Shown in pieces: positions 2,123 to 59,400 of a DNA stretch of 64,000 nucleotides; the first letter of the stretch is position 1; every line of letters starts with the position of its first letter. The notes below the pieces were generated by a model, which had not been told where the DNA came from, made no database searches, and was given only the letters and a program-made list of their open reading frames with translations. This DNA comes from an uncultured Magnetococcales bacterium (lineage in GTDB: Bacteria > Pseudomonadota > Alphaproteobacteria > UBA2136 > JAPKEQ01): NCBI GenBank assembly GCA_964015495.1, contig CAXHDG010000002.1, positions 1,449 to 65,448 on the forward strand. The letters run 5' to 3'. Both the position numbers and the translations under genes were made by a program.

Positions 2123-2144
2123 CTTTTTGTGGTATATTTAAATT

Positions 2145-4459: not shown

Positions 4460-4505
4460 AAGAAAGTTGTGTATACCTTTTGTCTTGATTTAAGGACAAG
4501 GTGAA

Positions 4506-5243: not shown

Positions 5244-5251
5244 AGTTTTTT

Positions 5252-7000: not shown

Positions 7001-7100
7001 GTTGCAAATTTCTGACACATCTACGCCTTTTAACGCTGCGCTGTTCAGTTTTTGTTTGGAAGGTTTCCATAATTCAGTACTCTTGTAAGGTGCAGAAAAA

Positions 7101-9224: not shown

Positions 9225-9304
9225 AATAACAAAGTGTCAGTTGTTTAGGGGTTGTTTTCTCTTGTCTCAGGCCATAAACTTTAGGATGAGTGTAATTTAA
9301 GGGT

Positions 9305-11245: not shown

Positions 11246-11300
11246 CCTTCTTATTGTCCTCCTGGAGGGGGAGGCGCTTGTTAGATGAGTTTTGCGTTTT

Positions 11301-11334
11301 AAAGGGGTTGTAGATTGCAATCCCTTTTTCTTTG
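11301..11334 (+). terminator. Probable rho-independent terminator
   Basis: GGGGTTG-tagatt-gCAATCCC imperfect hairpin (G-T wobbles) followed by TTTTTCTTTG, ~60 nt after the stop codon at 11245. Confidence 0.35.
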
Positions 11335-11423
11335 AGGTATTCTCATTGTGTAATTTTATGTTTTTAGCTTAAAAGAAGGCGCTTTTTGTGTACCGTTTTT
11401 CTTTGTTTATGGAGAAGTTTTAG

Positions 11424-12899: not shown

Positions 12900-12923
12900 A
12901 AATAATAAACAAGGTATAACACA

Positions 12924-13337
12924 ATGAAACAAATCAGAATTGTCGGTGCAATCCTTCTTGTGTCGGTTTCTATCTCTGGGTGTAAATATTACGGAAGCGC
13001 TGTTCCTCCAGAGTACCCCGTTTCAATGGATGATGCTTTGGATGTGGCAACGGATAGAAACACAACAATGGGCGGAATTCAAAGACCTATTGTACGTAAA
13101 CTAACTCGTCCTGCTATTGATCAGCCAACATATGTGCCAGAAAAAGAACTTGCAGTTGTTGCTCCCCCAAAAACGCTTCTTGTGTGGTCATACCCTCATG
13201 TAACGGAAGATAACACACGTGTGTTTGGTAATTGGGCGACTATCTTTATTAATGACAGGTACGAGTGGATTCCACCAAGCAATGAAGTTGCCGCAGAAGA
13301 AATGACATTTGGAGGGGGCTATGGGGCTTCTCGATAA
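12924..13337 (+). CDS. traV: F-type T4SS lipoprotein TraV (VirB7-like)
   Basis: 137 aa. Lipoprotein signal with lipobox ISGC. In the F-like traB-traV-traC order. Confidence 0.5.
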   Translation: MKQIRIVGAILLVSVSISGCKYYGSAVPPEYPVSMDDALDVATDRNTTMGGIQRPIVRKLTRPAIDQPTYVPEKELAVVAPPKTLLVWSYPHVTEDNTRVFGNWATIFINDRYEWIPPSNEVAAEEMTFGGGYGASR

Positions 13338-15918: not shown

Positions 15919-15921
15919 GCT

Positions 15922-30683: not shown

Positions 30684-33600
30684 TTAGGATTTTGCTGTAA
30701 GACCCCTTAGTTGACCAATAATACTATTGATGTGAGCAATGCCTACGCCATCCAAGCGTTTAAGCTCTGCCACCATTGAGAGGTAGTTCTCAAGGCGCTC
30801 TGATCTTTCAGATGCCCATTCTTTAAGAGCCGCATCTTGTCCGCAAGATTTGCTAAGAGCCATCACGCCACGCGTGCCTTGCCTTTGCGCTGTATAAATG
30901 GCTTCCATAAGAGAAAGAACAGCAACACGTTCCCAGTTATTCGTGATTGGGATAGCGCGTGTAAGATCTTGCAGTGCACCAAGCTTAAGTGTTTCGCCAA
31001 GTGCAAAATGAAGTTTAGTCACTTCTTCAGCTTTACAGCCTTCCTCAAGCAGGATTTTGCTGATGTCTGGCATGCTATTTAGGCTCGGCAGTTTACTGAA
31101 GATATCAGAGTCCTTTTTCGGCAGGCCTTTTTTCATCCATTCTTTGCAACGTCTCTCAATGACTTTGCCATGGGCGGGAGTCACTGGTTTTTGCAGAATG
31201 GTTTCAAGTTTTGTAAATGATCCTTTGTAAGTATCAATGATGTCTTGAATGCCGCTCTCAATTGTTGCGTTTCTAATGAGCCAGTAACTCACAGCTTCAA
31301 CAAGCTTTTTCACGGTACGTAGCATGTCACGTTGGTGCTCGGCAGAAACCTTATTATCAAGAAGCTCTGCTTGTTTGTACCAGCGCTCTGCTTCAAGGAG
31401 GCGAGAAGCAGCAATGTGTGCTTTGGTAACAGTTTCAACTGATGATCCTGTTTCGTTTACCATGCGGTAAGTGTATGTAAGCCCCATGCGGTTCACAAGC
31501 TCGTTAGAGAGAACCGTTGCTACGATTTCACGCTTGAGGCGGTGGCCGTTAATTTCGGCTGTGTATTTCTTGCGTAAGACTTCAGGGAAGTAACGGAAGA
31601 GATAGCTTTCTAGCGCTTTATCATCAATCATATTGGTACCGAGAAGAATACTAAAGATATCCATCTTTACATAAGCCATAAGAACAGAGAGCTCTGGGCG
31701 TGTAAGACCTTTTTTGTTATGAGCGCGTTCAGTAAACTCTTCATCAGATGGTAAGAATTCAAGGTCACGATCAAGGAAATCTTTCTTTTCAAGGTCACGT
31801 GTGAGGCGTGCATAAGTATCGAGAGATTCTATACTCACTTGCTCTGCAATTGTTAGAATTTGTGCTTGTAGGTAGTTGTCACGCAGAACGTGCTTAGCGA
31901 CAGCGTCAGTCATATCTTCTAGGAGTACTGAGCGTTTTTTATCGGTAATTTTACCTTGCTCACGCACAGTATTAAGAAGAATCTTAATGTTCACTTCGTT
32001 ATCTGAGCAATCTACCCCAGCGCTGTTATCAATCGCGTCTGTATTGATAAGGCCGCCGTTTCGTGCGAATTCAATACGTCCAAGCTGTGTGCTACCTAGG
32101 TTTCCACCCTCACCAAATACTTTGGCGCCAACTTCATCCCCGTTAATACGAATTTGGTCGTTTGCACGGTCACTTGCATCAGCGTTGGTTTCAGTTTTAC
32201 CTTTTATGAAGGTACCGATACCACCATTCCAAAGAAGATCAGTTTTCATGGTTAAAATAGCACGAATGATTTGATCAGGTGTTGCGCTATCTTTATTGAT
32301 ACCAAGAAGTTTCTTCATCTCTTTTGTAAGATCAATAGATTTATCGTGGCGCGAGAATACACCGCCTCCTTTAGAAATAAGTTTAGTGTTGTAGTCGCTC
32401 CACTGAGAGTGCGTTTCATGGAAAAGACGGTTACGCTCTTTCCACGTTTTGGCGGCATGCGGTGTTGGGTCAATAAAGATATGCATGTGGTTAAAGGCTG
32501 CGACAAGGCAAGTATGCTTAGAAAGCAGCATACCGTTCCCGAATACATCTCCGGCCATATCACCAATAGCAACGCAGGTGAAATCTTCAGTTTGAATATC
32601 TGTTCCCAACGTTCGGAAATGGTGTTTCACACATTCCCAAGCTCCACGGGCTGTAATCCCCATTTTTTTGTGGTCGTAACCATTAGAACCACCCGATGCA
32701 AAAGCATCTCCAAGCCAAAAGCCGTTGTTTTTAACAGACCAGTACTGGCTTGAGCTCTCCGCAATGCCATTGGCAATATCAGAGAAGGTTGCTGTGCCTT
32801 TATCAGCAGCAACAACAAGATAAGGGTCATCATCATCGTGACGTTTTACTTCTCTTGGTGGCACAACTTTACCATCAATGAGATTGTCTGTAATACTGAG
32901 CAGGTGCGTCACAAAGCTAGAGTAGCGCGTTTCAACAACTTTCATCAGTTCCCCTCGCTCTTTAGGGAGGTCATGTTTAATGATAAATCCACCTTTAGCG
33001 CCAAGCGGTACAATGACAGAGTTCTTTGTCATTTGTGTTTTCATTAGGCCAAGGATCTCTGTACGGAAATCTTCATGGCGATCTGACCAACGCAGACCTC
33101 CACGCGCAATTTTTCCGCCGCGTAGGTGTACACCTTCAAACAATGTGTCATATACAAAAATTTCAAACATTGGTGCTGGCGCTGGCATGCCAGGAACCTT
33201 TGTACTATCTAACTTAAAGCAAAGTGTATCTGTATCGTTTTTGCGCTGCCATGCGTTGGTACGAAGGATAGCTTGTGTAAGCCCCATAATACGGCGAAGA
33301 ACAGTGTCTTCATCCAGAATACTTACATGAGCAAGATCAGCTTCAATTGTTTTAATGAGAGCTTTCACTTTACTTTGGCGACCAGAGATATTTTCTGGCG
33401 TCATGCGCACGTCAAATAGATCAACAATCTTTTTCGCAATTTTTGCATGTTTAATAAGCGTGTTGCGTACATAGTCACTGCCATGACGGCCGCCAACTTG
33501 CTTTAGGTAAGCTACAAATGAACGCAAGATAACAATCTGGCGCACAGTCATGCCTGAAGCGACAATAAGGCCATTAAGCGTATCGCTTTCAAGTGTACCT

Positions 33601-35525
33601 TGCCATGCAGCTTCAAGAGCGCCTGTTAGAATTTTAAGAGATTCAGGATTCTCTAAATTTCCACCAATGCGGCTAGATACACCAAACTCATGCATCCAAA
33701 TAGGCGTAGCATCTTGGCCAACGCGTATGCGGTTTGGCTGTTCGTTGTTTACAAATAGGCCCATGTTATCAAGAATAGGCATAATGTCAGATAGGTTGAC
33801 GCGTTTAGAGTCTCTAAAAACTTTCATGCGTGCTTGGACATTGCTATCACATGGATGGATGCCTACGTGGAACTGCTTTCCTGCACGGACAGCTTCAATA
33901 TCTTTCACATCTTTAGCAGCGATGCTTGCAGGCGTGTTCTCTTTATAGCCTTCTCTAAAGGCTTCTTTATAGGAGATAAAGAGAGAGCTTCCTTTTTGGT
34001 CGCCGTATAGTTTCGCCATTTCAGAACGAAGAGAATCGTCCCAGCTTCTCACGGTTTCAATAATAAGGCGTTCAACAACGTTATCATCTGTATCAATTGT
34101 TGTTGTTTTGGTACGAATTTTAAAGAAGAGGCGTGTGAGCATAGATTCGCCATACGTTGTGGAATACTCAATATCCTCACCGTCGTACGCTTCTAGTAAA
34201 ATGCGAATGATTTTTTTGCGGATGCTGCTGTTCATACGGTCTCTTGGAATAAAGGCCATAACAGTTACAAGGCGTTCTCTGCATTCTCTGCGTGCAAACA
34301 TGCGCACTTTTTGGCGTTCGCTAAGATGTACAATACCGTTAGCAATACGCATAAGGTCTGGCAGTGTAATTTGGAAAAGCTCATCCTTAGGGTATGTTTC
34401 TAAAATGTTGGCAAGCGCTTTAAAGTTATGTGTATCAGAACCTTGATGGGCAGCTTCATCGAGAACCATTTGAATTTTTTGACGCACGATTGGAATTTCG
34501 CGAGCGGGCGTTGTGTAGGCCTTAGATGTAAAGAGCCCCATAAAGCGATGCTCTCCAACAAGAACACCTTTTTTATTATATTGTTTGATCCCGATGTAAT
34601 CCATATCCACACGGCGGTGAATAGGAGATTTAGCAAGCCCTTTTGTGATATTTACAATGTGGCTATCACGCATATTATGGGCAAGGTTAGGTGCAAGGTT
34701 TGCAAAAGCAACAGGTGTTTTTACTGAAGATTCTTCGTTAGACAAAATACCAAGGCCTGTCCCTTTGGTCATGCCAAGGTAATCATCATCTGTTTTGTGT
34801 GTAATATCGTAATGTCTGTACCCAAGAAAAACAAAATTTCCATCAATGAGCCATTTTAGGAATATGGTATCTTCCCTGTTTTCTGTGGTGAGTTTAAGTT
34901 TTTTAGCGTCATATTCGGCAATAATTTCTTGCAGTTTAGCCGTCATTTTAGGGAAATCACGAGAGACAGCGCGTGCTTGGTGCATCACGTTTTCAAGACT
35001 CGTTTTAATATCGCGGAGAAGTTTATCATCTTCAATGCGATCAAATTCAATATGAACAATAGATTCAGGCTGGAAGGTTTGATCTTTATTTGTACCCAGT
35101 CCAACGTCTTTAAAATCTTTAACTTCACCAGAAGGCGTACGTTTAGTTAGAAAAACCGGGTGGAAAGTATGGTGCACATCAAGTCCGCGACGATGAATCT
35201 CTGACCATACGCTATCAACGAGGAAAGGCTGATCCTGCATATGAACTTCAGCAACAGTATGTCTTGTGTATGGAGGGTTGTGAACACGTACAAAAACTTC
35301 GCCCTTCCATGCTGTATTAAATACGCTATATACGCTCTGAATGTGCCCAAGAATGGCTTCATCATTAAGGAAGTCATACTCCATAAGGGGGAGACCTTTA
35401 AAGTAGGTTCCAGCAAAGGTCGAAAGCTCTTTCTTACCTGTGATTTTGGATCTGCTGAGAATGGATTGGCAGTACTCAGTTAGTGCTTGTGGAGGTTTGA
35501 CTGTTTTCAGCGCGGTTTTGCCCAT
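30684..35525 (-). CDS. gdhB: NAD-specific glutamate dehydrogenase, large (~180 kDa) form
   Basis: 1613 aa. Catalytic core [39 protein letters not shown]. The overall length and domain order are typical of the Bac_GDH family. Confidence 0.9.
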   Translation of the reverse strand: [1613 protein letters not shown]

Positions 35526-35666: not shown

Positions 35667-35987
35667 TTAGGCAAGCCTATCAATGGCGTCTTCCATCATT
35701 TCATCCGTCGTTTTCATCACTTCAAGGTTGGCTTTGTAGGCATGTTCAGCAACCTTCATATCCATAATGCCAAAAAGTGGGTCTGATGTATTTTGTGAGG
35801 AAAGGTAAGTTGAGCTATCAAGTGTAATGTCTTCATTAAAAGAAGCAGAAAGCTCATTGGCGCTAGCTGCAAAGCTATCTGTAGTAGCTTTTGCTGCCTC
35901 AGAAAAATCGCGAGAGGATTTTTGAACCCCTCCAGACGCTGTGTTAAGCGCATTAGCGAGGCCGGCTGATTTACTTACGATATCCAT
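35667..35987 (-). CDS. Hypothetical small Ser/Ala-rich protein (106 aa)
   Basis: First of three co-oriented small ORFs separated by 14 and 60 nt. No TM or signal peptide. Low-complexity S/A/T-rich. Confidence 0.35.
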   Translation of the reverse strand: MDIVSKSAGLANALNTASGGVQKSSRDFSEAAKATTDSFAASANELSASFNEDITLDSSTYLSSQNTSDPLFGIMDMKVAEHAYKANLEVMKTTDEMMEDAIDRLA

Positions 35988-36001
35988 AAATGTGCTCTCC
36001 C

Positions 36002-36301
36002 TTAAACCGAAATATTGACTGCAGAGCCTACAGAATCAAGAAGCGCTGTTGTAAGCGATGCTGACGCTGATAGGTTGTTCATGGCATCTGTAATGCTGGA
36101 AGCTGGATCTGTGAGCATTTCAGCGGCTACCATTGCTTCAAGTGAAACCATTTCACCGCTGGCATTTTCAAAAGATAGGCCTTCTGGAATTTGCGGCGCG
36201 TAAGCCTTACTAAAGGCTGCTGTCATGTTAGCTGTTTGGCTAAGCTCCTGTGCGCTGCTTCCCATAATGAGTGCATTTACGTTTGCTGTTATACTATTCA
36301 C
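36002..36301 (-). CDS. Hypothetical small Ser/Ala-rich protein (99 aa)
   Basis: Same operon as above. No recognisable domain. Confidence 0.35.
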   Translation of the reverse strand: MNSITANVNALIMGSSAQELSQTANMTAAFSKAYAPQIPEGLSFENASGEMVSLEAMVAAEMLTDPASSITDAMNNLSASASLTTALLDSVGSAVNISV

Positions 36302-36361
36302 AGAACTCCCCTGTTGTCTGTTTCTACTATACCTTATGGCTCTTACCTATAGAAAAAGCCT

Positions 36362-36727
36362 TTATATCCCTGCCGCCATGATACCAGTCATTTGAGCATG
36401 AGTTGTTAAAATATCGTTTTCTAGCTTAATAGATGCCTCGTATGAGTGGAATATTTGCGCGGGTTGTGTTGTATCTATTGCACCAATTTTCTTGAGTGCA
36501 TCATTTACCTGAATGCTTTCTGCGTCTGGTGTTAAAAAATCTGCAAGTAGAGGGGCAAGGCGATCAGTATCATTGATTGCACCAAACCCAAGTTGGTTTT
36601 CAAAGCCTGCAAACCCATTAGCAACATTCAAAGAATGAATATCAAACTGTGGATTTGAACTAAAAACGCCCATAGATGAAAGCTCCATAGAGCTCATGGG
36701 CATGGCCGGAGCTGCGCCGATCATCAT
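36362..36727 (-). CDS. Hypothetical small protein (121 aa) with a Met-rich N-terminus
   Basis: Same operon. N-terminus MMIGAAPAMPMSSMELSSM. Confidence 0.35.
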   Translation of the reverse strand: MMIGAAPAMPMSSMELSSMGVFSSNPQFDIHSLNVANGFAGFENQLGFGAINDTDRLAPLLADFLTPDAESIQVNDALKKIGAIDTTQPAQIFHSYEASIKLENDILTTHAQMTGIMAAGI

Positions 36728-36862
36728 TATTGACTTCCCCTTATGGTTTTTTATTATCTTCTATTTATGGTGTATACAATTAGTGTTTGTGCTGACATGG
36801 TTGCATTTATCTGTAGATTTCCCGTTGACAGGGTTTCATAAAATGCTGCAAATAGGAGTTAT

Positions 36863-37567
36863 ATGAGTGAAAAGACATACATTTTAGGGTTTGAAACAGC
36901 AGGAGATCAATTCTCTCTCGCTTTGTTACGCTTTGAAAATGAAAAGTATGACACTCTCTTCTCTCATCATGAAATGGCTTACCGCGGTCATGCGGAGCGT
37001 TTGTTACCCGTGCTTGAAAAAGCATTAAAGGAAGCTGGCATTACAAAAAATCAGCTTAGCCTTATTGTTACGGGCAAGGGGCCTGGTTCTTTTACAGGGG
37101 TGCGTGTGGGCCTAAGTGCGGCGCGCGGACTTGGTGATAGCCTGAAAATACCTGTTGCTGCTTTACCTGTATCAGAGGTGATTCTAAAAAGTGTTCAAGA
37201 GCAAACAGAAGCAAAGCGCTATACGGCGTGGCTCACAGCCCATGGTGAGGATGTTTATGTGCAGGCTTTAGAAGAGGGCACTTTATCTGAAATAAGCTGC
37301 ATGAAAAGGTCACAAGCTATTGACGAACTTCAAGGCGGGCAAGTTTTATGCGGAGATGGCATGCTTGAGCACCGTTCATCTGTGCCTGAAAGTGTTGTCT
37401 GTACATCTTTAAGTTATCCGCCTGTTGGCAGATACGTGAATGCTGAAAAACTGACCCGTTACGGCCATGAAGCCTTTTTAAAGGGTGGGGGGCAAGGGTT
37501 AAGCCCGCTGTATGTCAGGGCCCTTTCTTATCAAACAATTGCTGAGCGTGAAGCGCTTAAAAAGTAA
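36863..37567 (+). CDS. tsaB: tRNA threonylcarbamoyladenosine biosynthesis protein TsaB (YeaZ)
   Basis: 234 aa. ILGFETAGDQFSLAL N-terminus (inactive Kae1-like fold). Followed by rimI as in many bacteria. Confidence 0.8.
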   Translation: MSEKTYILGFETAGDQFSLALLRFENEKYDTLFSHHEMAYRGHAERLLPVLEKALKEAGITKNQLSLIVTGKGPGSFTGVRVGLSAARGLGDSLKIPVAALPVSEVILKSVQEQTEAKRYTAWLTAHGEDVYVQALEEGTLSEISCMKRSQAIDELQGGQVLCGDGMLEHRSSVPESVVCTSLSYPPVGRYVNAEKLTRYGHEAFLKGGGQGLSPLYVRALSYQTIAEREALKK

Positions 37568-41118: not shown

Positions 41119-43296
41119 CTACTTTGTTTGGCTGATAAAAGCGCCATCCCAGTCTTTTGCGGGCGGTGTTTTTTTATAAGACTTAATGCGATCAAGAAAA
41201 AGCTCTTTAAGGGTGTTATGCACTTTAAGAGATTTATAAAGCTTTTCTGCTTTTGCCCAATCTTTGTTTTGGTAGGCTTTAAAGCCTTCTGCGGCTGCTT
41301 TCTGATCGTGAAGCTGATCCTCGCTGACAGTTTCGTCTATGCCGATGAGTTCGTACAGGGCAACAGGTTCTGTTTTTCCTTTTACTGCTACAAGATCAAG
41401 GAAAAGAAACTCTGCTTCTGGCACAACATCTTTTGTGAATGAACTGGCAATTGTAATAACGCCATATTGCTTAGATTGCCCTTCAAGGCGAGAGGCAAGG
41501 TTGACGCTATCTCCCATAACTGTGTAATCAAAGCGCTGTTTTGAACCCATGTTTCCGACGCTACACATGCCTGTGTTTATACCAATACCAACGGCAAGGT
41601 TAGGCAAACCGCGTTCGGTAAGTTCTACGTTAAGCTCTTCAAGACGAAGCTCCATATCGCGGGCGCTTTTACAGGATAAGTAAGCGTGATTTGGCGTATC
41701 CAGTGGGGCATTCCAAAAGGCCATAATAGCATCGCCCATGTACTTATCAATGGTGCCTTCGCTGTTCATAATAATCTCTGTCATGGGCGTTAGGTAATCA
41801 TTTAAAAGGCCGCTGAGCTCTTCTGGTGTAAGTTTTTCAGAAATAGAGGTAAAGCTACGAATATCACTAAAGAGAATTGTCATGTTTTTTTGCTCACCGC
41901 CAAGCTGAAGGCCATCAGAGGATTCGCTAAGTTTTGTGACAAGTTCTGGTGAAAGGTAATGAGAGAAAGCATTACGAATTTGTTTTTTAGAAGCTTCTTC
42001 ACGCGCATATTTAATAAAGTTTTGCATCATAAACATGAAAACAAGAGTTGCCGTTGGCACGGTGGCATCAATTAAGTACCCATAATTTTTAAAAGCAATA
42101 ACACTCACGGAGATACTTGTAAAAAGCATACTTACGGCAACAATACCTGCCCAAATAGATCCAAAACGGTTAACCAGAACAATAAGCAGTATACCGCTAA
42201 TAAGAGTGAAAACCGTTGGGAACATTTCTGACCACCAAGGGCGTTGCAAAAATTCTCCACTGAGGATTGTTTCAAGGGTTTGTTTGTGGATGTCTACGCC
42301 GGGAACAACAGCGTCAAGCGGTGAGGATCGTAAATCAAAAAGCCCTGGTGCAGATGTACCGAGAAAGGCGAGTCCATTATCAAAATAGCCTTCTGGTAGA
42401 CGTTTATTCATAATATCGCTTGCTGAAATGTATTGGTCTCGGCTGTAGTGTTTAAAGCGTGTCCAAATACGCCCGCCCTTGTCGACAGGAATAATAATAG
42501 GTGTTCTGCCAAGCCTAAATCCTGTGAGACCAGCATTTTCCTCAACAAAAGCAAGGTAGGATTTTTGATCCATAGCCACGCGCAGAAGTTCAATAGAAAG
42601 ACTTGGATAAGCATGTCCTTTAAATTCAATAAATGCAGGAACTGAGCGTACGATACTATCTACTTCTGGCACCATATTGAAATGAGCAAGGCCATGTGAG
42701 CTATCCTCAATTTCGGAGATATTACGCGTTACATTTTCTGCGCTAGAGAGCCATTCCCCATAACTAGAAACACCAGATAAACTGACACGCGGCATCATGT
42801 CATCATTGTTGCGGGTTTGTTCTTCAAAGTTAAAGGCTATACCAGCAACCACATTGTAGTTTTGAATGGTTTTTGCAAAAACATCATCATGCTCTGGGAG
42901 GTTTTGAATGGTGCTCTTCTCATCTTTGGAAAGAGGCCAGTTTTTGCTCACAAACTCTGGTGATGTGCGGTCGGGTTCTGCAAATACCATATCAAAAGCC
43001 ATGCCAGAGAGACCGTAGGTTTCAAAGGAGGTTTTCACCAGTTCTGCAAGTACTGTGCGCGGCCATGGCCACTGGCCAATTTCTGAAAGGCTTTTTTCAT
43101 CAATATCAATTACATAAACCGGAAACTCATTATCTGTACGTGGCCATGTTTTTTGGTATTGGTCAAAAACCTTAAGCTGAATCACCTCAATAAGGCTGAT
43201 AGATGTCATTGAAATAGCAAGGCCCGCAAGAAGAATAAGCCAAGGTAAAAATGAAACGCTGGCAGAAAAAAGCTTCTGGAAAAGCCCTTTTACCAT
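41119..43296 (-). CDS. CHASE2-domain membrane adenylate/guanylate cyclase (class III)
   Basis: 725 aa. N-terminal TM, a ~300-aa periplasmic CHASE2-like domain, three TMs, then the cyclase domain (ILFSDIRSFTSISE...KYMGDAIMAFWNAP...NTGMCSVGNMGS...DYTVMGDSVNLASRLE). Followed by a TPR-like tail. Confidence 0.85.
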   Translation of the reverse strand: MVKGLFQKLFSASVSFLPWLILLAGLAISMTSISLIEVIQLKVFDQYQKTWPRTDNEFPVYVIDIDEKSLSEIGQWPWPRTVLAELVKTSFETYGLSGMAFDMVFAEPDRTSPEFVSKNWPLSKDEKSTIQNLPEHDDVFAKTIQNYNVVAGIAFNFEEQTRNNDDMMPRVSLSGVSSYGEWLSSAENVTRNISEIEDSSHGLAHFNMVPEVDSIVRSVPAFIEFKGHAYPSLSIELLRVAMDQKSYLAFVEENAGLTGFRLGRTPIIIPVDKGGRIWTRFKHYSRDQYISASDIMNKRLPEGYFDNGLAFLGTSAPGLFDLRSSPLDAVVPGVDIHKQTLETILSGEFLQRPWWSEMFPTVFTLISGILLIVLVNRFGSIWAGIVAVSMLFTSISVSVIAFKNYGYLIDATVPTATLVFMFMMQNFIKYAREEASKKQIRNAFSHYLSPELVTKLSESSDGLQLGGEQKNMTILFSDIRSFTSISEKLTPEELSGLLNDYLTPMTEIIMNSEGTIDKYMGDAIMAFWNAPLDTPNHAYLSCKSARDMELRLEELNVELTERGLPNLAVGIGINTGMCSVGNMGSKQRFDYTVMGDSVNLASRLEGQSKQYGVITIASSFTKDVVPEAEFLFLDLVAVKGKTEPVALYELIGIDETVSEDQLHDQKAAAEGFKAYQNKDWAKAEKLYKSLKVHNTLKELFLDRIKSYKKTPPAKDWDGAFISQTK

Positions 43297-44651
43297 GAAG
43301 TACCAAACTGTTTGGTGACATTAAAGAGTACTTTTTCATTTTCATACTCATAGTTTACAAGATTACTATCAGCTTCTGCGTGCTGATAGCTTGCAGAAAC
43401 AGTCCAGTTTCCTTTGAATTTTTTACCAAAAAGAGCAGAAAGTGTGCGGGAGGTATCCGCACGCACCACTGTGGGGCTTACAAGAATATCAACGCCTTTA
43501 TATTGACTCTTTTTCATTTTCCAGCCCGCATTAAAGAACATATCAGCCGGCAAAACGCGTGTGTACGTTAAATTAAAGCTCTTTTGTATATTGTCGTTAT
43601 AGAGAGTTTGGGTGTCCTCTCTGCGATGAATGGCTGAAAAATTAAAAATATCTTTAGGCGTAGCAGCTGCAAGAACCGTAAAACCAAACTCTCTTGCTTT
43701 ACCGTCTTTGTCTTCATAGGTTGTTGTTGTGCGACTGTTGGTGAAATCTCTGTTTTCTGCCTTTGCATAAGTGCTCACCTTTATTTTAGGATGCAGAATT
43801 TTTTCAGCTGAAGTTTGCAAGCTTGTGATCTCAAGGTAATCTTGATGAGCGAGCTTAATATCGCTGTAAGCCCCTTCAAATTTAAGTTTTGCGCCATGTT
43901 TAGGAAAACTATAAGACGGACCTGTTTTGTAGTTGAATACGGTCAAATCTAAGCCATCAATAGACATTTGCTCTGTTTTGTAGAAGCTAAAAGCACTATC
44001 CCATGTGTAGCCTTTTTGGTGGTTAAAGGTGTAGGAATGGTTGACGCTGGTACTGCTGAAAATGCTTTCATCGGCGTCTTCTCCGCTGCCATTTCCAACA
44101 GGCACAATCACATCAAATACTGAAACTGTACCACTGTTAGGCGCAGCAGATGCGTTTGAGTCTGAAGCATAGCCAAAAGAAAGAGAGCCTGTAAGTTTAT
44201 GACGCTTCCTAGCGGCGCCAATGCGTGTAAGCATGGCATTTACATTTTTCTGAACAGCTTCTGGCGGGCCCCCTTCTAAAACTTCGTTAAAGAGCTTTTC
44301 TGCACGTGTGAAATCTTTCATGTGCATATAGGTAAGGGCAAGATCAAGCTTTACGCGTGGTAGGTCTGGCTTATGGATAAGCATGCGTTCGTAGGCTGAA
44401 ACAGCTTCGTCTAGCAGCCCCATTTTTTTTGCAAGAGAGGCATATTCAAAATTAAGTTTTAAGTTTGAGGGGTCTTGTGCAATTTTTTGTAACAAAGCAT
44501 CAAGATGCTCTGCAGGAGAGATTTTCTTTTGCTCTGATTCAGTTTGCGGTTGTTGCTTTGGTTTTTCTTCCTGTGTAAAAGCTACCGTGCCCATAAGGCA
44601 CAGAGTCGAAACTATAAATGTGAGAGCGAGCTTTTGCCTCAAGAGGACCAT
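43290..44651 (-). CDS. TPR-containing outer-membrane beta-barrel protein (DUF560/Slam-like architecture)
   Basis: 453 aa. Signal peptide. N-terminal TPR repeats (EAVSAYERMLIHKPDLPRVKLDLALTYMHMKDFTRAEKLF). The C-terminal half has alternating beta-strand patterns and ends ...KQFGTSW (aromatic terminal residue). Confidence 0.45.
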   Translation of the reverse strand: MVLLRQKLALTFIVSTLCLMGTVAFTQEEKPKQQPQTESEQKKISPAEHLDALLQKIAQDPSNLKLNFEYASLAKKMGLLDEAVSAYERMLIHKPDLPRVKLDLALTYMHMKDFTRAEKLFNEVLEGGPPEAVQKNVNAMLTRIGAARKRHKLTGSLSFGYASDSNASAAPNSGTVSVFDVIVPVGNGSGEDADESIFSSTSVNHSYTFNHQKGYTWDSAFSFYKTEQMSIDGLDLTVFNYKTGPSYSFPKHGAKLKFEGAYSDIKLAHQDYLEITSLQTSAEKILHPKIKVSTYAKAENRDFTNSRTTTTYEDKDGKAREFGFTVLAAATPKDIFNFSAIHRREDTQTLYNDNIQKSFNLTYTRVLPADMFFNAGWKMKKSQYKGVDILVSPTVVRADTSRTLSALFGKKFKGNWTVSASYQHAEADSNLVNYEYENEKVLFNVTKQFGTSW

Positions 44652-45277
44652 TGATCACTATCATCCTTCATTGCTTCTTCAAGTGATTCTTCCCCAGAAT
44701 TCTTACGCAATCTCTCAATTTCATGGATAAGATCAATGCGCTCAACCATGGCACCAATAATGGTTGAAAGGCTTTCCATGTCTTCTTGGTGCTGAAGTGT
44801 AAAGGGGTGATAGATAGGCTTTCCGTCATCACCAACGCCGTCAATATGGTTAATAAGTTGAACAACGCCAATAACACGGCCATAAAAGTTTTTAAGCGGG
44901 AAAGCCAGCATGCTCATGGAACGGTAGTGGGTTTTATCATCAAATGAGCGGTTAAATGTAAAGGGGACACCGCCAGGAATATCATATAGATCGTCAATTA
45001 AAACAGATTCACCTGTTTGGGCAACGTAACCAGCAATTGATTTAAGATCAATGGGCATAGCGAAGTTTTGAGGATCAAGTTGTAGGGAATCATTTTGCAT
45101 TGTCATCGCTTGAAGTGTTTCAGGCTCTCCATCGTATGGGCGTACAATGAAGGTACTTCCAGCTTCTGAAAACGTATGACGCCTTGCCTTTGCAAGGATA
45201 AGATCCATAGCTTGAGTTGGTGTTAGCCTTCCAGCATTGTGCTGGAGGACTGCAATAAAATCATCAGCAATACTCAT
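44639..45277 (-). CDS. GAF domain protein
   Basis: 212 aa. GAF-like core (...FIVRPYDGEP...IAGYVAQTGESVLIDDLYDIPGG...). Cytoplasmic. Confidence 0.6.
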   Translation of the reverse strand: MSIADDFIAVLQHNAGRLTPTQAMDLILAKARRHTFSEAGSTFIVRPYDGEPETLQAMTMQNDSLQLDPQNFAMPIDLKSIAGYVAQTGESVLIDDLYDIPGGVPFTFNRSFDDKTHYRSMSMLAFPLKNFYGRVIGVVQLINHIDGVGDDGKPIYHPFTLQHQEDMESLSTIIGAMVERIDLIHEIERLRKNSGEESLEEAMKDDSDQWSS

Positions 45278-51289: not shown

Positions 51290-52837
51290 TTGATTCTTTT
51301 GAGAAGCTATATGATGATAGCACCCATGAAGATTTTTAGGACACACCTTGCTGGAGAGCATGATACTGAAAAGCTTGCCCAAGTTTTGGCAAAGTTTACA
51401 GTTGCGGGAGACCGCTTTTACTTGAATGGTACCTTAGGTACTGGAAAAACAACGTTTAGCCGTGCTTTTGTGCAAGCGCTTGGAAGCGAGGATGCTTATG
51501 TGCCAAGCCCAACATTTACGCTTGTGCAAACTTACGATGATACGCGCCTTCCTGTTGCTCATGTGGATTGTTACCGTATTGAAAACCCAGAAGAGGAGCT
51601 TGAGGCTCTTAACCTCTCTCCGTTTTTTAGAGACGGTGTAACCCTTTTGGAGTGGGCGGATACAGTACAAACGTGCCTTCCGCCAGTTGAGGGTACGCAA
51701 GTCGCTATTGCAGAGCTTGATATCCCTGATGCGCTGACAATTAACATAAGCCATGTTGGGGACACAGCTAGAAATGTAGAGATGTTTGCCTCTGGCAGTT
51801 GGGCGTTTAGGCTTGAGCGTATTGGTGGTTTTCAAGGAGATGTGACCCACGATGAAGGGAATGAACATCGTTTTTCTAAGCAGGAATATCTCGGTAAGCA
51901 TAATTTTAGGGGGCATGTGCTTAAGCCTCTTTTTCAGGACTGCTCTTTAAGAAGTTACTACCGCTTTCAAACAGGCAGCGGTCCGCGTGTTCTTATGAAT
52001 GCGCCTCCAGGACTTGAAGACCTTGGCACGTTTGTGCGCCATGCAAAATCGCTTAAAATGCAAGGCGTCAATGTACCTGAAATTTATGATTATAACCTAG
52101 AACACGGTTACGCTATGATTGAGGATTTTGGTGATACGATTCTCCATGATGCTTTAAAATGCGCGCCTCACGATATGCAACTTTTGAACAAAGCTTTTGA
52201 TATGCTAACAGCTTTCCAAAATACAAATTTAACGGATATTCCAGAATATACAGAAGATGTTGCTTTTGCAGAAGCGAGCCGCTTTACAGATTGGTACCTG
52301 CCTTACGCTAAGGGGCACTCAACGCCAACAGGTGCTCGTAGAGAGTGGCGTACCCTTTGGTATGATCTTTACCCTCAAATTGCAGCTATGCCAAAGGTTC
52401 CTGTACATTGGGACTTTCATGTGGGCAATATGATGGTTTTAAAAAATGGCGAATTGGGGCTGATTGATTTTCAGGATGTAAAGCGCGGATCTTGCGCCTT
52501 TGACCTTGCCTGCCTTTTGGAAGATCGTTACGCCATATCTGAGGAAAATAAGCAAAACCTAAAAGACCGTTTAATCCAGCATTACAATTTGGATAAAGAT
52601 GCTTTTGAGGCGGCTTACGTGCTGGGCGGTTTGCACCGTATGTTTAAAGTGACAGGGCTTCTTATTCGTTTAAAAGAGCGTGATGGCAAAGCCGATGCTC
52701 TTGACCGTATGGGGGAGGTATGGCAAACCATTGCAAGGCTTTGCAAACATCCGGCTGCAGCACCTGTTCAAGACTATCTGAACCGCGTTTATCCCCTTTA
52801 CGAAGAAAAATACCTTAAAACACAAAAGGCATCTTAA
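51290..52837 (+). CDS. tsaE: Bifunctional protein: TsaE (YjeE) P-loop ATPase fused to an aminoglycoside-phosphotransferase-like sugar kinase (AmgK-like)
   Basis: N-terminus LNGTLGTGKTTFSRAF (TsaE Walker A). The C-terminal ~330 aa has the APH-fold Brenner motif HWDFHVGNMMV and LIDFQD. Confidence 0.8.
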   Translation: MILLRSYMMIAPMKIFRTHLAGEHDTEKLAQVLAKFTVAGDRFYLNGTLGTGKTTFSRAFVQALGSEDAYVPSPTFTLVQTYDDTRLPVAHVDCYRIENPEEELEALNLSPFFRDGVTLLEWADTVQTCLPPVEGTQVAIAELDIPDALTINISHVGDTARNVEMFASGSWAFRLERIGGFQGDVTHDEGNEHRFSKQEYLGKHNFRGHVLKPLFQDCSLRSYYRFQTGSGPRVLMNAPPGLEDLGTFVRHAKSLKMQGVNVPEIYDYNLEHGYAMIEDFGDTILHDALKCAPHDMQLLNKAFDMLTAFQNTNLTDIPEYTEDVAFAEASRFTDWYLPYAKGHSTPTGARREWRTLWYDLYPQIAAMPKVPVHWDFHVGNMMVLKNGELGLIDFQDVKRGSCAFDLACLLEDRYAISEENKQNLKDRLIQHYNLDKDAFEAAYVLGGLHRMFKVTGLLIRLKERDGKADALDRMGEVWQTIARLCKHPAAAPVQDYLNRVYPLYEEKYLKTQKAS

Positions 52838-53581: not shown

Positions 53582-56440
53582 ATGGCACAATTTTTTTACA
53601 CGCCTCTTTCTTCTGACTTTTTTAATGTTTGCGCAGAAACGCTTTTGGCGCGCTATAACCCTCAAAATGATCCACTTGCTTTAACCCATGTGACTGTATG
53701 GGTGCCATCCTCTCGCATGGCGGACAGTCTTGCAGAAAGTTTGCTTAAGCAAGCAGGCGGCGGTGTGCTCTTACCAGATATCCGCCCCATGGGCACAGAA
53801 ACAGATGATGTGCTTTTGTTTGAGGAGAGCGTGCAAGAAGGCACAATGTCTGGTTTTGAGCGTTTAATGTTCCTGACGGATTACTGCATGAAACATATGC
53901 CACATGCTCAGTGGTCTAAAGCTCTTAACCTTGCCAAGCACCTAGATACTCTTTGGAAAAAAATGCTTCTTAGTGGGGTAGAAATGAACGCTCTTAAAGA
54001 AGCGATTCCAGAAGAGTGGGCAGAGAGGTGGGAAGATATTTCCCTTTACCTTTCTGGCCTTACGGAGGCATATCCTAACCACCTCAAACATCTCCATAAA
54101 AAAGATGAAACTCTCCATAAAATTGATGTGCTCAAAGCTTATACGGCGCAGTATCAAAAAAATGCCCTAACGCAAGATGTGTGGACGGTTGGCTTTAGCG
54201 ATACAATTGAACCTGCGCGTGACATGCTAAAAGCGCTCTCTCTTTGTGAAAGGTCGCATTTTATTATGCCTCTTGATGGGGCTGCATTTCCAAAGGTGTT
54301 TTCGCAAGAGCGCTTAGATCCAACTCATCCCCTTTATGGTCTTCAAGGTTTTATGGGCGAGTGGGAGCTTACATTGCAGCAGCTAGAAGAGCTTAAAAAA
54401 GTACACTGTAGTTATGTGCCTTTATTTGATGATGTGCCAAGCGTTCAGGATGTCAATGTACCTTTTATACTATGCGAAGCTGGCCACCTAGAAGGTGAAG
54501 CAGAAACCATTGCATGGATTATGGCAGAGAGGGCCATGTTGCCGCAAAAAACTTGCGCACTGGTAACGTCTGATTTGTCGCTGGCTTTTAGAGTGCAAAC
54601 AATACTTGAGCATTACGGGCTTTTTGTTGATAGAACAAACAGCTCTCCGTTTGTTTCAACGCCCCTTGGCGCACAAGCTCTGCAAATTTTAGAATGTATG
54701 CTCTCAGGGTATAAACCTGAAAAACTAGCGGGCATTTTACTTAATCCTGTTACAAACAGGGGCATGCATACGCATGTTGCAGGTAGCCTTGATGAAAAAA
54801 ATTTAAGGGGTATGCTGCGCGGACAAACTTCGCTCACATTTTGGAACAGCCTGATAGAAAGAGGTGAAATTTCAGAAGAAGCGGCATCGCAGCAATTTTC
54901 TTATCTCCTTTCTGCTTTTAGTGCTTTTAATAGTCAGGCGTCTCGTCCGTTAAGTGGGTGGCTTAAGGCGCACCTTGAGCTTCTTGTTGCCCTTGGGGAG
55001 GCGCCAGTTGGCCGCGCCTTTTTAACAAGAGAGGAAGAAGCGCTTAAAGCATGGCAGGTTATGATTGAGCAAACAGGGCATCTTACCTCCTCGCTTTCCT
55101 TTAAGGATTACGCCGAGCGCTTTGCTGTGTTGTTTGAAACGGTTTCTATTCCTAATCGTACAGAAGGCGCTCATCCGAGGCTTAAAATTTTAGGACCATT
55201 AGAAAGCCGTCTCCAGCGTTATGATTGCGTGATTCTTGGCGGCTTAAATGAAGGCACAACGCCGGGGCAAATTTCGCCAGATGTATGGCTCTCTTACGCG
55301 CAAAGAAAAGAGCTGAATTTGCCTCCAGTGGAAAGCTCTATTGGGCTAAGCGCGCATGATTTTTTAAGTCAGCTTTATGCAGATGAAGTTGTGCTGACGC
55401 GCCGCACTCAAAGCGAAGACGGTATTACCCTTCCCTCTCGTTTTTTGATGCGGCTTAAAAGTGCTGTTGGAGAAAGCGCTTATCAGGCTCTCCTTGCAAA
55501 AGGAAACGTCTATGTTAAAGCTTCTGAAAAACGAAGAATATCAGGTAAAGGGCATGTACTAACAAAAGCAGCGTGCATGACTGCGCTTAGCGATGCTTCG
55601 CCAAAGTTTTGGTCACCAAGTTATATAAAAGATATGATGGGATGCCCTTATAAGGCCTATTTGCGTAAGGGGGCTTCCTTAGATGCGCTTGAGCCTTATG
55701 GAAAATCTCCTGATGCAGCCCTTAGAGGGACGCTGATCCATGAGGTGCTCTCTACATTTTGTGAGGCGCACCCTGTTTTAAATAGAGACGAAGAAGAATT
55801 AGACCAACAGCGCCTTATTGATTTGGCAGCAGACCTTTTAGAAAAAAATGTACCCGCAGCAGTGCAGGCGGTATGGCAAACGCGTTTTGAAAAGCTAGCG
55901 CCAGATATTCTAAGGTTTTGGCATGAACGCCAAGATGCAGGCTGGCACCAAAGCGCCCTTGAGGAAAAGGTCTCATCAGATAAAACGGCTGTACCGCTTT
56001 TTGCGGTGCTTGACCGCGTAGATGTAAGCCCTTCGGGGGACTTAAGTATCCTTGATTACAAAACGGGAAGCCTGCCGATCAAAAAAGATATTTACACAGG
56101 TGCTCAGCCGCAATTGGTGCTTGAAGCACTTGCATGGATGAACGCGCACGCGCATACATCAGTTAAACAGCTTTTGTATTTACGCCTGCCTGCTGGTAGT
56201 AAAGATGGCGCAAAGGATATGGTTATTGCCCATGGGGCAGAAAAAATTGAACCGCTGATAGAACAGGCAGAAGAAGGTCTTTCAATGTTGAATGATTTAT
56301 ATAGGGGCGCAGATAAAGCATGGCCAGCTGTGGCGGGCGGGGTATCGGCTGTAAAACTTTCTGGTGCTTGTGAAAACTGTGATTATAGCGGGGTTTGCCG
56401 CGTGAGAGAATGGGTAAGCACAGGAGGGCATGATTCATGA
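53582..56440 (+). CDS. addB: Double-strand break repair protein AddB (alphaproteobacterial type)
   Basis: 952 aa. C-terminal PD-(D/E)XK nuclease motif LSILDYKTGS. Immediately upstream of addA with a 4-nt overlap. Confidence 0.8.
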   Translation: MAQFFYTPLSSDFFNVCAETLLARYNPQNDPLALTHVTVWVPSSRMADSLAESLLKQAGGGVLLPDIRPMGTETDDVLLFEESVQEGTMSGFERLMFLTDYCMKHMPHAQWSKALNLAKHLDTLWKKMLLSGVEMNALKEAIPEEWAERWEDISLYLSGLTEAYPNHLKHLHKKDETLHKIDVLKAYTAQYQKNALTQDVWTVGFSDTIEPARDMLKALSLCERSHFIMPLDGAAFPKVFSQERLDPTHPLYGLQGFMGEWELTLQQLEELKKVHCSYVPLFDDVPSVQDVNVPFILCEAGHLEGEAETIAWIMAERAMLPQKTCALVTSDLSLAFRVQTILEHYGLFVDRTNSSPFVSTPLGAQALQILECMLSGYKPEKLAGILLNPVTNRGMHTHVAGSLDEKNLRGMLRGQTSLTFWNSLIERGEISEEAASQQFSYLLSAFSAFNSQASRPLSGWLKAHLELLVALGEAPVGRAFLTREEEALKAWQVMIEQTGHLTSSLSFKDYAERFAVLFETVSIPNRTEGAHPRLKILGPLESRLQRYDCVILGGLNEGTTPGQISPDVWLSYAQRKELNLPPVESSIGLSAHDFLSQLYADEVVLTRRTQSEDGITLPSRFLMRLKSAVGESAYQALLAKGNVYVKASEKRRISGKGHVLTKAACMTALSDASPKFWSPSYIKDMMGCPYKAYLRKGASLDALEPYGKSPDAALRGTLIHEVLSTFCEAHPVLNRDEEELDQQRLIDLAADLLEKNVPAAVQAVWQTRFEKLAPDILRFWHERQDAGWHQSALEEKVSSDKTAVPLFAVLDRVDVSPSGDLSILDYKTGSLPIKKDIYTGAQPQLVLEALAWMNAHAHTSVKQLLYLRLPAGSKDGAKDMVIAHGAEKIEPLIEQAEEGLSMLNDLYRGADKAWPAVAGGVSAVKLSGACENCDYSGVCRVREWVSTGGHDS

Positions 56441-59400
56441 CATCTGTTCAAGAAAGAAGGCAAGCCGTTACAGCAGAGGCTACAGCAGCCCAAAGAAAAG
56501 CTTATGACCCAACACGTTCTGTTTGGCTTAGCGCTTCGGCAGGAACTGGTAAAACATATGTTTTGATTCGCCGTTTGCTGCGCCTTTTTTTACATGACTT
56601 GACCCTTAAACCTTCTGATATTTTAGCGCTAACCTTTACAAAAGCTGCCGCCCGTGAAATGGAAGAGCGTTTTGTAAGCGCCCTTGTAGACTGGAGTAGT
56701 CTAAGCGAGGAGGCGTTAAAAAAAGAGCTGTTTATTTTACTAGAACGTGCGCCATCACCAGAAGAATATACGAGAGCGCAGACCCTACTAACAGCCGTTC
56801 TTGATAGTGAACCTTCTATGACAATTACCACGCTGCATGCTTTTGCAGGACAGGTGATTTCTCGTTTTCCACTTGAGAGCGGTATTTTTCCGGGGAGTCA
56901 AATTTTGGATGATGAGGAGCAGCGCAGTCTGTTAGAGCAGGCGCTGCAAAGCACGTTTGAACTGCTCGGCACGCGTACAGAAACAGAAGAGCCGCACTGG
57001 GCTTTTGTATGCCTAGCAGAGCGTATGGCAGAATCTACGTTAAGGGATGTGTTTACTGATTTTATTCATAATGCCAGACGCTACAAAACTATGTTTGCAA
57101 GGGAGGGCGGCCTTGGTGGTGTGCTTGCTTCTTTAAAGGAAAACCTTGACCCTGCGCTTGAAAATGCAGAAAACTGGCGCACTCAGCGCGCCCAAGCGCA
57201 GGGCGAAACGCCTGTGAATAAAGCCGTGCTCATGCATATGTATGAAATGTTTGCAAAAAGCACTTCTTCCTTAGATCAGAAACAAGCCTCGAAGTTACGC
57301 GGGTTTTTAGAAGCATCTACGCCAGAAAGTCGCAGCGTCCTTTTTGAAGCATACAGCCGTGCATTTTTGACTGCAACAAAAGAACCTGTAAAGCGCTTTG
57401 TTACCAAAAAGGTAAAAGAAGGCTTTAGCACAGAAATGCTGGAGGTGATCGAGGCTGAGTCTGAACGTGTACAGCAGGTGTATGAGTTTTGCGCTGCTGG
57501 CGATACTTTTGCAGAGACGCAAGCGTATCTCATGATGGCTTCAATGGTGCTGAACAGTTATGAATCCCTTAAAAAGGCCCAATCGCAAATTGACCATGAT
57601 GATCTGATTGATGCGCTTGTGGAGCTGCTTTCTGATGAAAAAAATAGAGATTGGGTGCTCTACCGCCTTGATCAGCGCTATAAGCATATTATGGTGGATG
57701 AGGCGCAGGATACAGATAGTCGCCAGTGGCATATTGTAAAAGCTCTTCTCAGCGAATTTTTTACTGGAGATGGTCAGCACGAAACTGAAGAAGCTCCGCG
57801 CACGTTCTTTACTGTTGGGGATATGAAACAGAGTATTTACCGTTTTCGTGGTGCGGAGCCTGAAGTTTTCCTTGCTATGCGTGATTACCTGAAGCAAACC
57901 CAGCCTGAGCAAGACCCGACCGTGACCATGAAAACATCTTTCAGATCAGGAGCGGCCATACTGGGCAGCGTGGATATGTTGCTTGAAAATCCCCGTCACG
58001 CCGCTTATGCCGCAAGTGGGGGAGAGACCCATGGCGTACAGAGAATTGGTGCCCCAGGGCTTGTAGAAATTCATCCGCTCCTTGAAGCAGAAAAGGTTTC
58101 AGCTCCAGAAATGAATGGCTGGATTATGCCTGAGGCGCGTCCTAAACCTAGCAATAAGTACACACCTCTTGGCCGTTATGTGGCGCGTTGGATTGAAGAC
58201 CTTTTAAAGCGTGCGCCTGTGTTGCCCTCTACGGGTGCACCAGCGGTGGCAAAAGATATTTTAATCCTCCTTAAAAATAGAACCATGATGCCAGAGCTGA
58301 TTGCAGCCCTTGACGCTGCTGGCATTGCGCATGGCGGGGCGGATATGATGACGCTGAAGGATATTCAGTTTGTGCAGGATATGTTGGCTGTGCTCCGCGT
58401 GATTTTAAATCCTTTAGATCAGTTATCCCACCTCCATGTGCTGAAAAGCCCACTTTGGAGCATGACGGATGAAACGGTTGAAAGTTTACGTGGTGCGTTA
58501 AAAGATAAAAAATTCTGGTTTGCACTATCAGATGACCCACGTTTTATGGATTACGTAGAATGGGTAAATGTCTTGAAACAAAAAGTACCTTATGGCTGTG
58601 AGGCTGTGCTGCAAGAGGTAGTGCGTAGCCGTAGTGCCATTGGTGTATATGCAGCCAGACAAAATGTAACGTCTGATGTCATTGATGCTTATTGGGGCGA
58701 GCTTCTTAAGCTTGCACGCGCGGCAGATAAAAAATCTCTCGGCCTTGCGAGTTTTGTGCATGAGGCCATGAACCGTGCAACCAATGTAAAACGCGAAGAA
58801 AGCGGCGTAGAAGGTGTACGTTTTATGACGGTGCACGGCTCTAAAGGGCTTGAATCCCCTATTGTTATTTTACCTGATACCACCAGCGCCATTACTGTGA
58901 GTAAAGCCAAGGTGTTTTGGGAAAATAAAAACAAATTTGTACTGCTCAGACAGCCAACTGAAAGCAAAAGCGAACTTCAGAAAACGCTCGAATCAGAAGA
59001 GCTTGAGCGCAAGTATGCAGATGATATGAAACTTCTTTATGTGGCGATGACTCGTGCGGAAGATCAACTTATGATTTGCGGCGTTCCTGCGAAAGAAAAA
59101 AGCGCTGAAAGCTGGTATGGATGGATCGAAAATACACTTGAAGAGCAAGATGCCTTATGGACTAAAAATTCTGATGGTATTAAAACATATTACGTTTCAG
59201 CTGAAGAGCAGCCAGAGGTTCAAAAACAAAATCAGGAAGCGATCTGTCGTGAAGTCCGCCCTGTGCCAACGCCGCGCCATGAACGCATGCAGCCGCGACT
59301 AAAGCCATCTTCAGGAAAAGGTTTTGATGTGGATACATTGCTCAGTGAGGCGCCAAACCCTGCTGATTTTGCCAGAGGTGCATTTATTCATAAATGCCTC

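Follow-up and report, generated by a model that had tools for sequence, protein, structure and literature searches.

Organization of the locus

A stretch of 64,000 nucleotides from contig CAXHDG010000002.1 of an uncultured alphaproteobacterium (assembly GCA_964015495.1), hereafter called the window, carries three small co-oriented genes, which we name A, B and C. Protein C was shown to be a member of the flagellar axial-protein superfamily that is reduced to the polymerisation core. The locus itself is unusually fixed and non-flagellar, and it includes two orphan partner proteins, A and B. The source lineage is deep-branching within Alphaproteobacteria, and its sole GTDB species representative is the metagenome-assembled genome (MAG) ANT-120 from the Antarctic Peninsula (order UBA1280, relative evolutionary divergence (RED) 0.66, 1.67 Mb, 89.5% completeness, 43.9% GC).

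The three genes lie 135 nt from the divergent tsaB and 141 nt from the downstream gdh, with spacers of 60 nt between A and B and 14 nt between B and C (Table 1). A GGAG/GGGG Shine-Dalgarno sequence was found 6-9 nt upstream of each of them. An initial annotation of the window had described this operon-like arrangement, including the sizes and both spacers, and its account was confirmed. The same applies to what it said about the products: they are rich in Ser, Ala, Thr and Asn (A 33%, B 49%, C 42%, compared with 22-24% in four neighbouring proteins), none has a transmembrane segment or a signal peptide (highest 19-residue Kyte-Doolittle mean 1.15), and one of them, protein A, starts with the Met-rich sequence MMIGAAPAMPMSSMELSSM. 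All three are acidic (pI 4.05, 3.29 and 4.04 for A, B and C, respectively) and devoid of Cys and Trp. No Rfam family was matched in the A-B-C region, and no structured RNA was detected in the intergenic stretches.

Table 1. Coordinates of the genes and sequence elements of the A-B-C locus in the window.
Feature	Position	Strand	Description	Basis
Gene A	36362-36727	minus	121 aa, ATG start; orphan acidic partner with Met-rich N-terminus	ORF and Shine-Dalgarno
Conserved C-terminal helix of A, residues 84-118	36374-36478	minus	Q.F.SYEASIKLENDILTTHAQM.GIM	
Gene B	36002-36301	minus	99 aa, GTG start; orphan acidic Ser/Ala-rich partner	ORF and Shine-Dalgarno
Gene C	35667-35987	minus	106 aa, ATG start; minimal flagellar axial-family protein	ORF and Shine-Dalgarno, PF06429
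N-terminal helix of C, residues 9-40	35868-35963	minus	aligns in register with the axial N-terminal D0 helix; without NIAN...GY	
C-terminal D0 helix of C, residues 66-103	35679-35792	minus	motif DPLFGIMDMKVAEHAYKANLEVMKTTDEMMEDAID	hhalign
Conserved upstream element	36761-36781	minus	AATTGTATACACCATAAATAG in the window; consensus ATTTGTGCnTnCnAnCATAAA	alignment of the upstream regions of seven lineages
tsaB	36863-37567	plus	divergent neighbour, conserved genomic anchor	PF00814
gdh, NAD-specific glutamate dehydrogenase	30684-35525	minus	1613 aa; downstream neighbour on the same strand as C	GDH domain series

Conservation and selection

A, B and C are real genes and not the chance open reading frames (ORFs) that the initial annotation had considered as an alternative. 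Identical or near-identical proteins recur in several independent metagenomes, MAGs and assemblies, and the length and sequence of A are kept among relatives at 71-93% identity. B and C are under purifying selection. In comparison with the most divergent close relative (locus L001, one of the related loci numbered with L below; protein identity 65-70%), C had a pN of 0.19 and a pS of 0.72 (omega ~0.09), and B had a pN of 0.22 with pS saturated. This is tighter constraint than that on the adjacent tsaB (0.16) and rimI (0.18).

Protein C is a FlgC-type axial protein without the central domain

Protein C matched the Pfam family Flg_bbr_C (PF06429) over residues 75-103 with a score of 23.1 bits (gathering cutoff 23.0, E 5e-5), so that the statement in the initial annotation that none of the three proteins has a known motif was wrong for C. 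The same family was matched by 5/5 close relatives of C (best E 2e-6) and by 29 of the 35 proteins that make up the C family described below (best E 8e-10), and it was not matched by three reversed and seven shuffled versions of C. When the C-family profile was compared with the PDB, all significant matches were flagellar axial proteins, aligned at their extreme C-terminus, with FlgC in first place (7bin_V, E 7e-5), followed by FlgE and FlgG; FlgK and flagellin were below significance (E ~0.07). With hhalign, the C family aligned to residues 94-130 of E. coli FlgC with a probability of 81% (E 1.2e-5) and to a mini-profile of seven axial C-termini with a score of 45.3 (E 6.5e-11, probability 97%; null 7.8 +/- 1.9). 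The best individual hhalign match was a FlgC-like ORF at locus L023 (probability 96%, E 1.3e-9). A tblastn search of 72,556 plasmids returned an annotated flgC as the sole match. A clear hit to a known family, for which the initial annotation had named phasins and FliE as examples, was thus obtained for C, and the family is that of FlgC-type axial proteins.

The identity of the N-terminal helix is less clear than that of the C-terminal one. Against seven axial N-termini it obtained an hhalign score of 19.0, which was reached by none of 200 column shuffles (null 7.5 +/- 1.6, maximum 14.9); the reversed alignment scored 12.7. A hidden Markov model (HMM) of the close family of C matched both ends of the L023 ORF, with model positions 9-33 aligned to 9-33 and 70-101 to 107-138. 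The AlphaFold2 (AF2) model of C comprises helices at residues 3-55, 58-64 and 70-105 with a low-confidence linker (pLDDT 74). Close-family alignments of A, B and C gave nothing meaningful against PDB profiles. Taken together, C was shown to consist of an N-terminal helix, a Ser/Thr/Asn-rich low-complexity linker and a FlgC-type C-terminal D0 helix.

FlgC was the best match of C in Pfam/NCBIfam, in the PDB and in the plasmid search. The C-terminal ~37 residues of the two proteins share the motif A-x-x-A/S-Y-x-A-N-h-x-h-h-x-T-x-x-x-M, and their N-terminal helices can be aligned in register. FlgC is, however, ~135-150 aa long compared with 106 aa for C, and its ~70-residue central inserted domain is replaced in C by a low-complexity linker of about 15-25 residues. 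FlgC also retains the NIAN...GY motif, which is lost in C, and C was never found in a flagellar operon. The C-terminus of the NCBIfam FlgC model TIGR01395 was matched by 23 of the 35 family members; C itself aligned only to model positions 93-134 with 20.2 bits. As the equivalog cutoff is 102.1 bits and the central domain is absent, C was rejected as an FlgC equivalog.

Rod subunits have a common core unit and differ in their inserted domains, with FliE and the injectisome protein SctI as small helical exceptions that have no inserted domain (bioRxiv 10.1101/2020.12.05.413195). FliE (PF02049, ~104 aa) and SctI therefore have the same size and plan as C, a helix pair without an inserted domain. 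C was nevertheless rejected as a FliE: hhalign gave a probability of 0.2% against E. coli FliE, PF02049 was unmatched, and FliE was missing from the PDB matches. The probability against E. coli FlgB was likewise 0.2%, and C was rejected as a FlgB as well. The needle and inner-rod subunits of injectisomes (SctF/SctI: PrgI, MxiH, PrgJ) are proteins of 80-100 aa with two helices, which assemble into a helical tube whose lumen is lined by the C-terminal helix. They resemble C by architecture only, as the sequence affinity of C is with the flagellar lineage and no injectisome gene lies near C. No needle or inner-rod family was matched by the proteins of the window, and none was present among the best 25 of 33 Pfam families (E <= 1) of the C-family members or among the PDB matches; this assignment was rejected too. 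A further parallel is the hook cap FlgD, whose N-terminal hairpin resembles the plan of C and provides a precedent for a D0-like hairpin as a cap; this hairpin mimics a rod subunit and plugs into the rod tip (bioRxiv 10.1101/2020.12.05.413195). FlgD differs in its large C-terminal cap domain, which is absent from C, and no sequence similarity between the two was found.

Distribution and genomic setting of the C family

An exhaustive HMMER scan of 1.84 billion representative proteins at a threshold of E <= 1e-3 recovered 41 proteins, nearly all of 97-125 aa and matching over their full length, and 35 of these align into a clear C family. The most conserved parts of the family are the two helices, with the patterns ...AL.TA..G..K.E..F..AA..V..SFA.AAN at the N-terminus and ...D....IVDMK.AE.AYKANLKV.K.ADEM....LDILA at the C-terminus, the latter preceded by the variable low-complexity linker. 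Other searches reached less far. Word-indexed homolog searches with A, B and C found relatives of at least 65% identity only, in three clusters each, a scan of genome contigs found the source species only, and a metagenome scan with a degenerate motif gave five loci, mostly with a different, full-length FlgC-like gene. The C family was thereby shown to be rare and unnamed; its ~100-aa members are so far confined to Alphaproteobacteria that are uncultured and mostly marine. Rather than a system of a new category, it represents an unnamed FlgC-derived variant with D0 helices only. The suggestion in the initial annotation that the genes form a lineage-specific system accordingly holds as far as the narrow taxonomic range is concerned; a wholly new system it is not in the case of C, whereas A and B have no detectable family.

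In databases, members of the C family are labelled 'hypothetical' or as FlgC/FlgG. The names given to the ~100-aa members P0020 and P0043, for example, are 'flagellar basal body rod protein FlgC' (JGI/IMG) or 'FlgG' (NCBI MAG annotation, MFT7144210.1, 101 aa). Such names overstate the sequence support for these proteins. For MAGs of an alphaproteobacterial order that is deep-branching and undescribed, the misnaming could lead to motility being inferred wrongly.

The gene neighbourhood was examined in ten lineages with a C-family gene. In eight of them (the window, L001, L012-L016 and the P0041 contig) the gene is divergent from tsaB-rimI, and in six of these eight gdh follows immediately downstream. 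The two most distant members, at L017 and L018, are located away from tsaB. All three genes are present in the window and in L012; L001 and L015 have B and C, and L013 and L016 have only C. The conserved unit is therefore C and not the trio, with B found in some lineages and A in fewer; as a co-conserved set, the three genes of the initial annotation did not stand up, since C is constant and A and B are missing from several lineages. No type III secretion gene was found in any of the examined C loci. Literature on UBA1280, PF06429 and orphan FlgC paralogs contained nothing relevant, and the supplements of the MAG paper hold no motility data.

The FlgC-like ORF at L023 (9671-10102 (+), 143 aa) resembles C in being FlgC-derived and in having a non-flagellar neighbourhood in an alphaproteobacterium. 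Unlike C, it has both the NIAN motif and the central domain (TIGR01395 positions 8-136, 69.7 bits, below the cutoff of 102), and it is not next to tsaB. Comparable ORFs were found at L020 and L022. As the L023 ORF shows, orphan FlgC paralogs located away from flagellar clusters also exist beyond the C family. It lies on a marine scaffold with 61% GC, together with MATE, isochorismatase-like, MoeA-like, XdhC and VWA/CoxE-like genes. A shorter version was observed at L021 (714-974 (+)), where ~67 aa from an internal Met amount to scarcely more than the two helices: MDAIGSAMTGLQRATQQLNSSAQRISQGEIEAEPIVESKVAETAFKANLTTLETVFETQEAALDILA. It suggests a size series of FlgC-derived mini-proteins.

This setting could be explained if the carriers have no flagellum and C is a repurposed FlgC leftover with a non-flagellar job, for example as a coiled-coil scaffold in the cytoplasm or a regulator linked to the housekeeping neighbours, or as a subunit or substrate of another apparatus. 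C adjoins tsaB-rimI and gdh and never flagellar genes, the host genome is small and streamlined, and orphan FlgC-like genes occur in non-flagellar contexts of other alphaproteobacteria, as at L023. C is also under strong purifying selection and so is not a decaying pseudogene. However, both polymerisation helices are kept and are the most conserved parts of the family, and this would be difficult to account for if C had no axial partner. Furthermore, a gene for a methyl-accepting chemotaxis protein (MCP) is present in L014, so at least one carrier is probably motile. Since flagellar genes are commonly scattered in alphaproteobacterial genomes, the missing linkage is also weak evidence. We consider a repurposed relic, the chief alternative to the role proposed below, possible, but on the unlikely side.

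Partner proteins A and B

A and B were shown to be strongly acidic, fast-evolving partners that come and go between lineages, and both are probably largely disordered. B has the conserved core PQIPEGLxF...GEMxSLExMVAA, with relatives at 65-97% identity, and no match in Pfam, NCBIfam, the PDB, PHROGs or PADLOC; its AF2 model is of low confidence (pLDDT 52). A gene at the same position as B is present in L001, L012, L014 and L015, with a Ser/Thr-rich version of 131 aa in L014. When the B HMM was searched beyond close relatives, the syntenic L015 protein ranked first (E 0.1) and the L012 and L014 partners were undetected. As the wider sequence homology of B is weak, calling these partners 'B-like' is partly a matter of position.

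A is absent from L001-L003, L013, L015 and L016, and no family was recognised for it in protein-family libraries or PDB profiles. Its C-terminal 35 residues are the sole part common to A and a 263-aa homolog in L012: the close-family HMM of A matched residues 227-260 of the latter with E 1.9e-6 among 2,539 ORFs. Widened alignments of A and B also gave nothing meaningful against PDB profiles. Compared in register with the axial C-terminal helix, the C-terminal helix of A was marginal (12.8 against a null maximum of 12.4). B showed no similarity to axial N- or C-termini. The 'flagellar-rod-like' character proposed in the initial annotation is therefore borne out by the FlgC-type C-terminus of C, remains marginal for A and does not apply to B. 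A, B and C were rejected as paralogs, as pairwise comparison showed no detectable relation among them.

These comparisons bear on the idea that A, B and C are diverged proximal-rod genes of a degenerate flgB-flgC-fliE operon. Such an origin would fit the number, common orientation and approximate sizes of these small genes, one of which encodes a rod-type C-terminus. Yet the C profile matches FlgC and not FliE (0.2%) or FlgB, and C has no FlgC central domain (20 bits against the 102-bit TIGR01395 cutoff). The partners fit no better, as B has no axial similarity and A a marginal one only, both are dispensable in several lineages, and the three proteins are not detectable paralogs. We find this origin hardly credible.

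The initial annotation had also likened the three proteins to secretion substrates and phasins, and they could accordingly be type IV secretion system (T4SS)-like substrates or phasin-like granule proteins. All are small, acidic and partly disordered, and a VirB4/TrbI-type cluster lies ~17 kb away in the window. Substrates of VirB/D4 systems typically have positively charged tails, whereas the C-termini found here are hydrophobic or acidic (…DRLA, …NISV, …AAGI), and none of the related loci has a T4SS gene closer than 10 kb to the module; the T4SS idea is thus disfavoured. The phasin comparison failed as well, since PF09361 and its relatives were unmatched by A, B and C at E <= 10 and weak Phasin_2 matches appeared in reversed controls only. 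Either identity is very improbable. A phage, defence or plasmid origin was rejected separately, with no match in PHROGs, PADLOC or viral contigs and no plasmid signal.

Upstream element and terminators

A conserved element precedes the first gene of the module by ~35-45 nt, whether this gene is A, B or C (Table 1). It is kept at equivalent positions in L001, L012, L013, L015 and L016, and it persists although the C proteins are as low as 36-38% identical to that of the window. The element did not fit the spacing of sigma70 promoters or the sigma54, sigma28 and CtrA consensus sequences tested, and scans for sigma54, sigma28 and CtrA promoters found none upstream of the module in the tsaB-linked loci. 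Its function may be that of an operator or of a promoter read by some other sigma factor. In L012, L013 and L016, C is followed by terminator-like hairpins; none was detected after C in the window. Its own upstream element and the terminators after C set the module apart from the gdh operon, and gdh is probably a separate transcription unit. In two relatives gdh was called as two ORFs (L006 688-5548, 362 + 1261 aa; L014 10349-15056, 613 + 950 aa), which may mean that the gene is truly split there, or may stem from a frameshift or from faulty assembly.

A perfect sigma54 promoter, TGGCACAGGTCTTGC, was found at L018 (~9818-9832), 183 nt upstream of the C-family gene P0052 (10001-10306). It was the sole flagellar-style regulatory signal seen. 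A sigma54 activator beside C in L014 was rejected as a flagellar equivalog, being of a generic type.

C could also be a secreted checkpoint or decoy. It would then be a regulatory mimic of a rod subunit and not a structural protein, and the state of assembly would be signalled, in a FlgM-like manner, by its export or by its association with a chaperone or regulator, perhaps A or B. C keeps the recognition and assembly helices only, is preceded by a conserved upstream element of its own and, in several lineages, followed by a terminator, and is accompanied by small partner proteins that vary between lineages; the perfect sigma54 promoter of the distant member at L018 points the same way. On the other hand, A, B and C contain no regulator domain and show no similarity to FlgM, FlaF or FlbT, the sigma54 activator in L014 is generic, and the upstream element fits no flagellar promoter class tested. 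We therefore regard a checkpoint role as unlikely.

Proposed role of protein C

To our knowledge, every rod subunit in the solved basal bodies joins the rod via these same two D0 helices. Of the two, the C-terminal helix forms the lining of the central channel, and the N-terminal helix is packed on its outer side. Since C appears to have both rod-joining helices, export by a flagellar type III apparatus followed by docking is its most likely fate. We tentatively propose, with somewhat less than even confidence, that C is exported by such an apparatus and docks on the rod or the export gate, with A and B as partners. The export apparatus would be encoded elsewhere in the genome, and C would use its D0 helices to dock onto the growing rod or the export gate. 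Once docked, it might add one more minimal layer to the rod or serve as an adaptor layer; alternatively, it might cap or plug the structure transiently. The simplest assumption for A and B is that they are co-exported with C or are holding factors that prevent its polymerisation in the cytoplasm; they are like known export substrates in their lack of Cys and Trp, their acidity and their flexible N-termini.

Several observations weigh against this proposal. The host has a small genome (~1.7 Mb at ~90% completeness) and belongs to an undescribed order. Neither the 64-kb window nor the 10 kb around the C-family gene in any of the ten lineages was found to contain a flagellar or chemotaxis gene, with the exception of the MCP gene in L014, which is also the only such gene in ~270 kb of related loci. 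As to protein C, its Pfam score taken alone is barely at the threshold (23.1 against 23.0 bits). The N-terminal family PF00460 was unmatched by C and was not among the best 25 of the 33 Pfam families for the 35 members, and the N-terminal rod motif NIAN...GY (...NNIAN..T.GY) is absent from the C-family alignment. Confidence in the AF2 model of C is moderate (pTM 0.33), and generic coiled coils were all that fold searches returned. Finally, A and B are tied to export or chaperoning by composition and position alone.

In a related idea, C, as a FlgC-derived two-helix protein, could be a self-sufficient, needle-like minimal axial subunit that polymerises, alone or with A and B, into a thin tube or plug on a type III export gate. 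We think this distinctly unlikely. If true, it would be a flagellar-lineage parallel to the needle and inner rod of injectisomes, possibly in lineages with reduced or lost motility function, as in Buchnera, where basal bodies are kept without filaments.

Whichever role applies, we know of no characterised flagellar axial protein, except FliE, that has no family-specific domain between its D0 helices; this domain gives each layer its identity. A FlgC-type family that is under selection without an inserted domain thus raises the question of what a bare core unit can do: it might form an additional layer of the rod, work as an adaptor, cap or plug, or act as a secreted sensor. In addition, nature provides in the C family a test of what export and assembly minimally require, and of the ways in which rod proteins can give rise to needle-like subunits.

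Other features of the window

The first 19,000 nt of the window (1-19000 (+)) are occupied by a divergent block that resembles a type IV secretion or conjugative element, with notable ORFs at 4506-5243, 5252-7000, 7101-9224, 11424-12899 and 13309-15918. Its contents include an SLT transglycosylase, a UvrD-type helicase, TrbI/VirB10, a VirB4/TraC-like ATPase and a protein of 707 aa whose KorB-domain and HTH matches are weak and fall below the Pfam cut-offs, interspersed with ORFs of 500-700 aa that have no Pfam match. The block is followed by a second PhoH-like gene (18861-19712) and then a PDDEXK nuclease. At 51290-52837 (+), a fusion protein of 507-515 aa combines TsaE, the ATPase of the t6A pathway, with a kinase domain of the aminoglycoside-phosphotransferase type; a nucleotidyltransferase and AddAB-like nucleases lie downstream (53582-59835). 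Between these regions, at 41119-45277 (-), a TPR_Slam/SlipAM-like protein (453 aa) and a GAF protein (212 aa) come before a CHASE2-guanylate/adenylate cyclase of 725 aa; the SlipAM-like protein and the cyclase are likewise paired in the relative L001.

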